Positions 32,722 to 33,032 of a DNA stretch of 64,000 bases are shown here, one piece after another. The DNA comes from Nitrospirota bacterium (GTDB lineage: Bacteria; Nitrospirota; UBA9217): contig CAVUCU010000005.1 of NCBI GenBank assembly GCA_963740085.1, positions 1 through 64,000 on the forward strand, in the 5' to 3' direction. Every line of letters starts with the position of its first letter. Within the stretch, counting starts at the first letter, position 1. The notes beneath the pieces were generated by a model, which had not been told where the DNA came from, ran no database searches, and was given only the letters and a program-made list of their open reading frames with translations. A program made the position numbers and the translations under genes.

Positions 32722-33032
32722 AGGCGTTGCCGGACCATCACCGACTAGGTGTAGAGATGATAGCCCGTTTTGAGGGGAATCAAGCACCGCGCCGGACAGT
32801 GAGTCGAAACCGGTAAGAAGTCTGCAAGTTGAGCGGTCATTCACCGGTTGTTTCACAGGCTCCTATTAAGCGCGGAAGAGCCGAAAGCCCCGAAGTCGAC
32901 GGATTGTGCGGAAAGAAAGGAACAATGAGCTTCACAGGGTCTGCTGAGCAGAGCCACAGAAGCAGTCATTGAGATCACCGCAGAGAATCCCCGGCTCAAC
33001 GGAATATCAGTAACGGTCCGCAGGCAACGCCT
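32722..33032 (+). ncRNA. Unclassified ~310-nt structured RNA candidate
   Basis: Nested long-range complementarity between the two ends, several internal hairpins, upstream promoter, U-tract at the 3' end, and no credible ORF. Confidence 0.6.

Follow-up and report, generated by a model that had tools for sequence, protein, structure and literature searches.

We analysed a 64,000-nucleotide (nt) stretch of a Nitrospirota genome (assembly GCA_963740085.1, contig CAVUCU010000005.1, positions 1 to 64,000 of the forward strand; hereafter the window) and describe here an RNA gene located on its + strand at 32722-33037, in the interval between a pabB/trpE-like and a ybgC-like gene. We hold with high confidence that it is a real stand-alone structured RNA of ~315 nt, belonging to a new family. 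It is preceded by a leader that by its sequence resembles that of ribosomal RNA (rRNA) operons; taking together the new RNA family, the rRNA-style leader and a synthesis assisted by Nus factors, we estimate the probability of the whole account at about 0.65. Coordinates given without contig label are positions in the window, and G000 designates the source genome.

Extent of the gene and tests against known families

The BLAST matches of the RNA in related genomes start sharply at 32721-32723 and stop at 33037-33040, down to 66% identity. These edges of conservation coincide exactly with the ends of the terminal helix P1 plus the U tract that follows it. The same interval, 32722-33037, is matched by R1, a sequence-only, full-length profile built from 55 distinct copies. 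A preliminary description of the window had named several pairing strings, and all of them stand where it placed them: AGGCGTTGCC at 32722-32731 with GGCAACGCCT at 33023-33032, GGACC at 32732 with GGTCC at 33015, TGATA at 32758 with TATCA at 33005, CCGTT at 32765 with AACGG at 32998, and GGGG at 32774. It had also put the GGA motifs at about eight, and eight are present; the U tract that it saw directly after the RNA is T6 at 33032-33037. The features of the gene and its leader are as follows.

32658-32668, + strand: extended -10 promoter TGTGCTATACT (TGn plus TATACT), hexamer at 32663-32668
32678-32695, + strand: leader hairpin AAGGAT-AGAGCG-ATCTTT at a boxB-like position, its sequence varying between genera
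32689-32700, + strand: boxA-like element GATCTTTCTAAA, from motif conservation in homologues
32722-33037, + strand: structured RNA, from P1 to P1 plus U6, from BLAST ends, profile match and RNA contigs
32722-32736, + strand: 5' strands of P1 (AGGCGTTGCC) and P2 (GGACC)
32739-32751, + strand: P3 hairpin CACC-GACTA-GGTG, paired in 96.4% of alignment cells
32758-32769, + strand: 5' strands of P4 (TGATA) and P5 (CCGTT)
32772-32893, + strand: 5' arm closed by GGGG/CCCC, with an ACCGG/CCGGT stem and a hairpin with conserved loop GCAAGTTGAGCGG
32892-32996, + strand: 3' arm, a long irregular hairpin, from covariance model R2
32998-33032, + strand: 3' strands of P5 (AACGG), P4 (TATCA), P2 (GGTCC) and P1 (GGCAACGCCT)
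33032-33037, + strand: U6 tract immediately following P1, probably the 3' end

Rfam 15 gave no match at the gathering score across the whole 64-kb window, and with E up to 10 over 32500-33200 it returned three chance-level matches only (11-12 bits, E 3-10); ARAGORN found no tRNA or tmRNA in the window. The preliminary description saw no tmRNA, RNase P RNA, signal recognition particle (SRP) RNA or riboswitch identity and proposed an Rfam search; that search leaves the novelty of the RNA intact. The common stable RNAs are all encoded away from this locus in G000, where the structured RNA itself is present in one copy.

Contig C1, position 1504328: RNase P RNA, 265 bits
Contig C5, position 123408: tmRNA, 193 bits
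Contig C4, positions 73917-74095: 6S RNA, 104.9 bits
Contig C1, position 1552815: SRP RNA, 73 bits
Contig C5, position 95702: 5S rRNA, 100 bits

No description of this RNA was met in the literature searched, a coverage outside which most subscription journals lie. The RNA is a new family in the sense that it matches no known family by any membership test run.

Fold, covariation and strand

The + strand reaches a minimum free energy of -120.2 kcal/mol, against -93.5 +/- 5.0 in 100 dinucleotide shuffles (z = -5.4, none as low). As the - strand folds comparably well (z = -6.2), the strand is not given by the folding energy alone. Three other observations place the RNA on the + strand: G-U pairs, among them one of P1 (UA 41, UG 14), many of which would be C-A on the opposite strand; matches of the 3'-arm model R2 that reach ~96 bits in sense against 24-46 bits in antisense; and a T-rich tail, with at least five T within 7 nt after GCC in 53/55 homologues.

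RNAalifold, applied to 30 sequences, gave 58 pairs with compensatory changes in 33. When the minimum-energy fold of G000 was mapped onto the 55 distinct sequences, standard pairs occupied 81.7% of the cells, versus 33-45% with the 3' partners slid by 1-3 columns, and changes on both sides occurred in 73 of 101 pairs, versus 48.4 +/- 2.8 in shuffles blind to phylogeny (0/500 reach the real count); one alignment was fitted to the structure, and the covariation figures do not read as probabilities. The slid-partner controls retain the relatedness of the sequences, yet fall far below the real pairing. While the support for P1-P5 comes from MAFFT alignments only, the two arms were realigned with covariance models of their own. 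In the 5' arm (model R3, realignment A7) 79.8% of cells are paired versus 29-47% when slid, and 31 of 35 pairs change on both sides versus 19.5 +/- 1.6 in shuffles (0/500). The 3' arm, realigned with R2 over 59 distinct sense rows, has 84% of its cells paired; one of its pairs is GC in 25 rows, CG in 9, AT in 8 and TA in 5, and a P10 pair of the 55-sequence mapping is distributed similarly (GC 23, CG 9, AU 7, UA 5).

The consensus fold comprises an end-to-end stalk P1-P2 and a small hairpin P3, then the helices P4-P5 and a three-way junction, from which two arms of ~120 and ~105 nt extend. The core of P1, GGCGTTGC/GCAACGCC, is invariant or shows G-U changes only in the 55 sequences. P2 covaries (AU 35, GC 15, UA 2), P4 is rebuilt in other genera—GATGATA/TATCA being replaced by TTTTAAA/TTTAAAA—and P5 is paired in 91%. 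The 3' arm stacks the stems AGTCG/CGGCT, GGATT/GAATCC, GCGG/CCGC, CAATG/CATTG and GCTTC/GAAGC, and its distal stem GGGTCTGC/GCAGAGCC closes a TGA loop. A simple terminator scan did not call the U6 end, because P1 is not a local hairpin.

The outer nested pairs proposed by the preliminary description (P1, P2, P4 and P5) and its inner stems CACC/GGTG, ACCGGT/ACCGGT, CCGCG/CGCGG and TCTGC/GCAGA all gain comparative support. Three other proposals exist in the G000 sequence and go no further. The pairing GGGGAATC/GAATCCCC is not kept in relatives, where the partner of GGGG is CCCC at 32888-32891 and that of GGATT is GAATCC; nor do relatives keep the ATTGT/ACAAT stem or the crossing pseudoknot GGCTC/GAGCC, in which one strand, GAGCC, hardly varies and the other varies freely. 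A crude all-against-all scan of alignment columns for a pseudoknot yielded scattered purine/pyrimidine correlations and no stacked run. We also considered a loop pairing GUUGAG/CUCAAC and rejected it, the alignment, read by eye, showing C-A mismatches in at least four lineages.

Expression of the RNA

Part of this stretch is present in ten RNA libraries, according to an index search. We aligned the contigs of four metatranscriptome runs, carrying four study codes, to 32560-33160: all pieces fall within 32726-33017, and in the four runs none lies in 32560-32721 (162 nt) or 33022-33160 (139 nt), uncovered flanks being, among contigs, no proof of absence. Three of the RNA contigs match the window at 99% identity or more. 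There is good evidence, then, that the body of the RNA accumulates as RNA. The word depths of 130-600 recorded in one run are no measure of expression.

A 239-nt contig (word depth 130) begins at 32726, behind a loose end of 20 letters resembling an adapter, and this start hints weakly at a 5' end located at P1. A mature 5' end at the start of P1 is also suggested by the diverged paralogues described below, because their -10 element ends 7 nt before AGGCGTTGC. Given the leader presented below, the RNA of the window is probably cut from a longer precursor.

Distribution and paralogues

By BLAST the RNA was found in 32/36 other genomes of the same family and in 0/24 genomes of 11 other families of the Nitrospirota phylum. 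The profile R1 matched 27/27 genomes of the family, while in 123 genomes of 21 other families it gave 7 partial hits only (E 0.004-0.01), which are noise; the covariance model R2 of the 3' arm separated 26/27 family genomes from 0/123 others. A pattern of the P1 strands, scanned over one genome per species in 185,579 species, occurred in at least 119 stretches, of which nhmmer confirmed 46 among those listed. For the 80 loci bearing a title, confirmation followed the label: 33/33 of those labelled Nitrospirota, Nitrospirae, Nitrospiria or Nitrospiraceae, and 0/47 with other labels. The RNA is present throughout one Nitrospirota family and restricted to it. A stand-alone large structured RNA of an undescribed class, as first proposed, is supported by the Rfam null, the family-wide covariation, the confinement of the RNA contigs and the varying downstream genes.

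Some genomes carry two or three diverged copies in tandem. Such sets were seen at L021 (G009:C90, three copies; the same set as L066), at L121/L182 (G010:C67, two copies 3 kb apart) and at L011 (G020, two copies); the secondary copies have a close-set -10 of their own and lack the boxA leader presented below. A second type of RNA, strongly diverged and unlinked to the first, occurs in several genera and matches the profile over its full length at 30-70 bits (L172-L179, e.g. G157:C27:4250-4546 and G018:C11:825439-825744), with the same P1 words and the same junction. These paralogues have neither a boxA leader nor a T6 tail; downstream of them a word like TTGTCAAAAAC recurs. The neighbours of eight divergent paralogues contain no common protein family, 24 open reading frames (ORFs) making 24 singletons. 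The extra copies are diverged tandem or unlinked paralogues with promoters of their own.

Promoter and boxA-type leader

The preliminary description gave the RNA its own promoter. This holds, with a refinement: the -10 element ends 54 nt upstream of the RNA, so that transcription, predicted to start ~7 nt after it, would first produce a leader of ~47 nt. As was noted, the 12-mer TGCTATACTGTA is common to the RNA and to an element at 14181-14400 then taken for a 6S candidate. The window contains it at 14181 and 32660 and nowhere else, against 0.03 occurrences expected by chance, and 0/100 shuffles reach two. An extended -10 motif of the TGnTATAnT type is present in 54/55 homologues, 45-94 nt upstream of P1 in 51/55, the primary copies; two of three secondary tandem copies have it 22-23 nt upstream and one has no match to the pattern. 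In many copies of both RNA types (e.g. L022, L148, L172, L173) we also observe TTGACA only 8 nt before the TATAnT hexamer (TTGACAnnnTGTGnTATAnT), a gap far too short for a -35/-10 pair.

Between this promoter and P1 the leader would form a small hairpin running into a boxA-like element. Homologues have hairpins of differing sequence at the same place (seen by eye, uncounted). The motif GNTCTTT(G/C)NAA lies within 60 nt upstream of P1 in 52/55 homologues, the three without it being the secondary tandem copies. In 50/52 the motif has its start 24-38 nt before GGCG, most often at 27 nt (16/52), a distance which corresponds to a 16-nt spacer between the motif and the 5' strand of P1.

The leaders of the family's 16S rRNA genes offer the closest comparison. 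In G000, GGTCTTTGAAAA is found ~130 nt ahead of the 16S 5' end; it comes after a hairpin, and a TTGACA/TACTAT promoter precedes both. In the family, 30/30 leaders have ATGGTCTTTGAAAAC at 122-133 nt from the start of the 16S gene, on the upstream side, where a CTGCG...GCAG hairpin precedes it. The hairpin-preceded motif GGTCTTTGAAA is common to G000 and to the 30/30 family leaders, and it sits at the place and in the order expected for boxB-boxA. In Bacillus subtilis, passages of a 2026 paper (PMC13753749) describe rrn leaders that open with a small hairpin and have a boxA-like element (consensus AUGAUCUUUGAAA) directly after it, and demonstrate by nuclear magnetic resonance that NusB binds this element. 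The gamma-proteobacterial boxA consensus is GYTCTTTAANA according to the corresponding part of a 2017 survey, which left non-coding RNAs out (PMC5725501). In the Enterobacteriaceae, an excerpt of PMC10250234 places boxC, which is the leader's share of the leader-trailer helix, 18-19 nt after boxA in 98% of cases and proposes that boxC is held at the RNA exit channel, through boxA and NusB, until the trailer emerges.

Compared with these leaders, the motif of the RNA agrees with both the family's rrn-leader boxA and the published consensus; promoter, small hairpin and motif follow each other in G000 and, in the same order, in homologues; and a fixed short spacer leads to a strand of a long-range helix. 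Letter for letter the leader motif is nearly equal to the NusB-binding boxA of Bacillus, and G000 encodes NusB (139.7 bits) and Rho (123.8 bits). We consider it reasonably probable, on this resemblance, that the leader is a functional boxA/Nus leader.

Two further observations concern the motif elsewhere in the genomes. A relaxed boxA-like word has 33 matches in G000; besides the rrn leader and the RNA these were judged by eye to be coding or unclear. In ~12/30 family genomes, GTTCTTT(G/C)A occurs after a long hairpin, 5-20 nt before the 5' end of RNase P RNA (G000:C1:1504700, - strand, and L234-L262), where it might act as a leader of boxA type or else terminate the gene upstream.

Proposed mechanism and its alternatives

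If the leader acts as in rrn operons, NusB and S10 would load on the nascent boxA and convert RNA polymerase into an rRNA-type complex, resistant to Rho on an untranslated transcript. A boxA that stays bound at the RNA exit channel would also keep in place the invariant 5' strand of P1, which is most commonly 16 nt downstream of it, as has been proposed for boxC in rrn leaders of Escherichia coli; when the 3' strand of P1 emerges ~290 nt later it would pair with the held strand, closing P1 over the folded body. The long-range P1 and the immediate U6 would then end or release the transcript, and trimming of the leader would leave a stable, abundant RNA.

What this RNA does is the weakest step of our account: by analogy, it might be a housekeeping RNA that acts in trans, binds protein and is synthesised in step with rRNA. 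Since P1 and the junction are invariant while the other helices covary, a sequence-specific recognition is suggested, and these nucleotides would be the recognition surface. We lean only tentatively, at somewhat less than even odds, to a role of protein scaffold rather than catalysis or self-assembly. Going further, one might imagine a lineage-specific stable RNA of the translation apparatus, made by the boxA/Nus machinery and acting with ribosomes or their assembly, in which the boxA-P1 layout would be a miniature of the leader-trailer mechanism, the tethered strand both folding the RNA and creating its own long-range terminator; this extension is speculative and quite doubtful.

Several points weigh against the account presented so far. 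The evidence for expression consists of assembled contigs, from which neither the 5' and 3' ends of the RNA nor its strand or abundance can be proven; a 244-nt contig is identical in two of the four runs, which may be one data set. The covariation shuffles, as said, ignore phylogeny. In G000 the leader motif is GATCTTTCTAAA and not ...TTTGAAA; as part of it coincides with the 3' strand of the leader hairpin, it may be structural or could be an RNase site. The leader is absent from the three secondary tandem copies and from all 8 divergent paralogues, so boxA is not required for an RNA of such fold. Also, rRNA-type complexes are said, in a passage of PMC10250234, to weaken intrinsic termination, which is awkward beside an end at a U tract. 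Lastly the gene neighbourhood, at the RNA loci and at the 8 divergent paralogues, gives no partner protein.

The alternative that best survives accepts the RNA as real and stand-alone and denies that the leader motif GNTCTTTGAAA loads Nus factors: it would be part of a protective 5' hairpin, a processing site of RNase E type or a weak attenuator, and the likeness to rrn leaders would reflect shared processing. The overlap with the hairpin and the lack of the motif in paralogues and secondary copies speak for it, and so does the similar GTTCTTT(G/C)A upstream of RNase P RNA, possibly a terminator. Such a leader nevertheless appears unlikely to us: the motif stands in 30/30 family 16S leaders at the expected boxA position, its distance to P1 is tightly kept, and it is nearly equal to a boxA reported, in the cited part of PMC13753749, to bind NusB.

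As to function, the main alternative to a protein-binding role is a catalytic or self-assembling RNA of the "ornate" kind, for example a ribozyme or, as described for other large RNAs of bacteria, a multimeric particle made of RNA only. With such RNAs it has in common its size, a fold with several junctions, invariant nucleotides in junction and loop, and a high abundance. On the other hand, no Rfam ribozyme or large-RNA match was obtained, neither a substrate nor a cleavage site is evident, and the crude column scan detected no covarying pseudoknot; we judge this alternative improbable. An RNA of the Ro/Y type was also considered and set aside, G000 having no TROVE domain.

Neighbouring genes and regulatory readings

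The two genes flanking the RNA are those recognised at the outset.

31050-32603, - strand: anthranilate/aminodeoxychorismate synthase component I-like gene, TIGR00564 at 484 bits, also matched by PabB models
33160-33552, + strand: YbgC/FadM-type thioesterase gene, TIGR00051 at 109 bits, outside the RNA unit

The real start of the first gene is probably the ATG at 32576 (MHLIKPSKDEF...) and not the listed TTG at 32603. The ORF of 243 amino acids that follows ybgC (33655-34386, + strand) has a weak TrmN-like match (63.8 bits) and is a class I methyltransferase rather than a Tol protein.

The pabB/trpE-like gene adjoins the RNA in 29/30 loci while the other flank varies, and its promoter on the - strand (TTGACC/TAGAAT, 32619-32591) is back to back with that of the RNA within ~70 nt. 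It might thus be supposed that the RNA regulates this gene, through a common control region or by base pairing. This is very improbable: the gene stands first in a conserved block of housekeeping genes (an SMC-like ATPase, tmk, holB, a PSP1-domain gene and metG), so that plain synteny suffices to explain the linkage; the two transcripts should not overlap; and the paralogues stand at unrelated loci with no common neighbour.

A cis-acting, riboswitch-like leader controlling the ybgC and methyltransferase genes, with P1 and the U tract as terminator, would account for the shared orientation with ybgC and for a terminator-like end 122 nt upstream of it. We regard it as still more improbable. In only 11/30 loci does ybgC follow, other genera having unrelated or convergent genes there; with downstream genes that change from genus to genus, and that in several genera are convergent, the RNA is not a cis leader. 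In addition, the RNA contigs cover the RNA and not the downstream flank, and a separate promoter-like site lies at 33108-33136.

The chances that the RNA is a CsrA/RsmA sponge, a mobile inverted-repeat element (MITE) or a small-protein gene, suggested respectively by the eight GGA motifs, the perfect 10-nt terminal inverted repeats and stop-free frames of up to 106 codons in some homologues, are negligible. The first two had been raised in the preliminary description and find nothing to sustain them. CsrA (PF02599) has 0 matches in G000, a genome 98.5% complete, while control genomes gave hits, and the conserved GGA motifs lie largely in helices (P3, P5, the edge of the P8 bulge, P11 and P14) and not in loops. 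The single copy in G000, with the same neighbour in 29/30 loci, shows no dispersed insertion pattern. As for a protein, the longest open frame switches strand and frame among the homologues (the six frames are longest in 16, 13, 9, 7, 5 and 5 of the 55), and the 47-codon frame of G000 is kept in only 10/55. Hfq is encoded in G000.

The element at 14181-14400

The 6S RNA of this genome is encoded at C4:73917, and the + strand element at 14181-14400 that shares the 12-mer with the RNA is therefore something else. Rfam, searched with E up to 10, gave no match to this element; its fold, which includes a long closing stem, is only modest (z = -1.97). The element is present in 10/24 genomes of the family, missing in 4/8 genomes of the same genus, 82-84% identical in other genera and found in 2 copies in four genomes. 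Such a patchy distribution suggests a small RNA moving horizontally.

Comparison with known systems

The leader of the RNA resembles that of an rrn operon by its strong promoter, its hairpin, a boxA-type motif identical to that of the family's 16S leaders and a short spacer to a strand of a long-range helix, 16 nt here versus 18-19 nt in Escherichia coli in the figures excerpted from PMC10250234. The differences concern what is enclosed: an RNA of ~290 nt unrelated to rRNA, versus 1.5 kb. Moreover the helix is apparently retained here (a contig starts at 32726), whereas that of rrn is cut away, and it is followed by a U tract which seems to end the transcript.

Like 6S RNA, RNase P RNA, tmRNA and SRP RNA, the RNA is chromosomal, near-universal in its lineage, abundant, transcribed from a strong promoter and probably processed. 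Unlike them it matches no model—those RNAs are encoded elsewhere in G000—and is confined to one family. Its shape also differs from 6S RNA: the latter is a rod with a central bubble, the former a branched Y with two three-way junctions.

OLE, raiA, ROOL, GOLLD and HEARO are large orphan RNAs of bacteria. Bacterial RNAs that are large, conserved and abundant yet fall in no known family are rare, and past ones have marked unknown biology. With OLE and the other four the RNA shares its length, its intricate and conserved fold and its narrow taxonomic range; it differs from them by having no Rfam 15 match at E up to 10, by its phylum and by having no associated protein genes. To our knowledge, a boxA leader has not been described for any of these five RNAs. 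The presence of the RNA in the 27/27 profiled genomes of the family and in environmental transcriptomes points to a probably basic role in these uncultured Nitrospirota.

A boxA placed before a transcript other than rRNA is also known from boxA-dependent CRISPR arrays and from suhB, and long untranslated RNAs are cited as needing protection against Rho in passages of PMC13753749 and PMC5725501. There the transcripts are arrays or the 5' untranslated region of an mRNA; here the transcript is a compact structured RNA, and a spacer separates boxA from its closing helix. The leader, whose description is new in this analysis, forms with the RNA a 360-nt system in which one could test whether tethering by the Nus complex helps to close a long-range helix, an idea hard to test on the 1.5-kb rRNA. 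With it, the gene of a compact non-coding RNA would join the known targets of boxA; non-coding RNAs were left aside by the published survey of Nus targets (PMC5725501).

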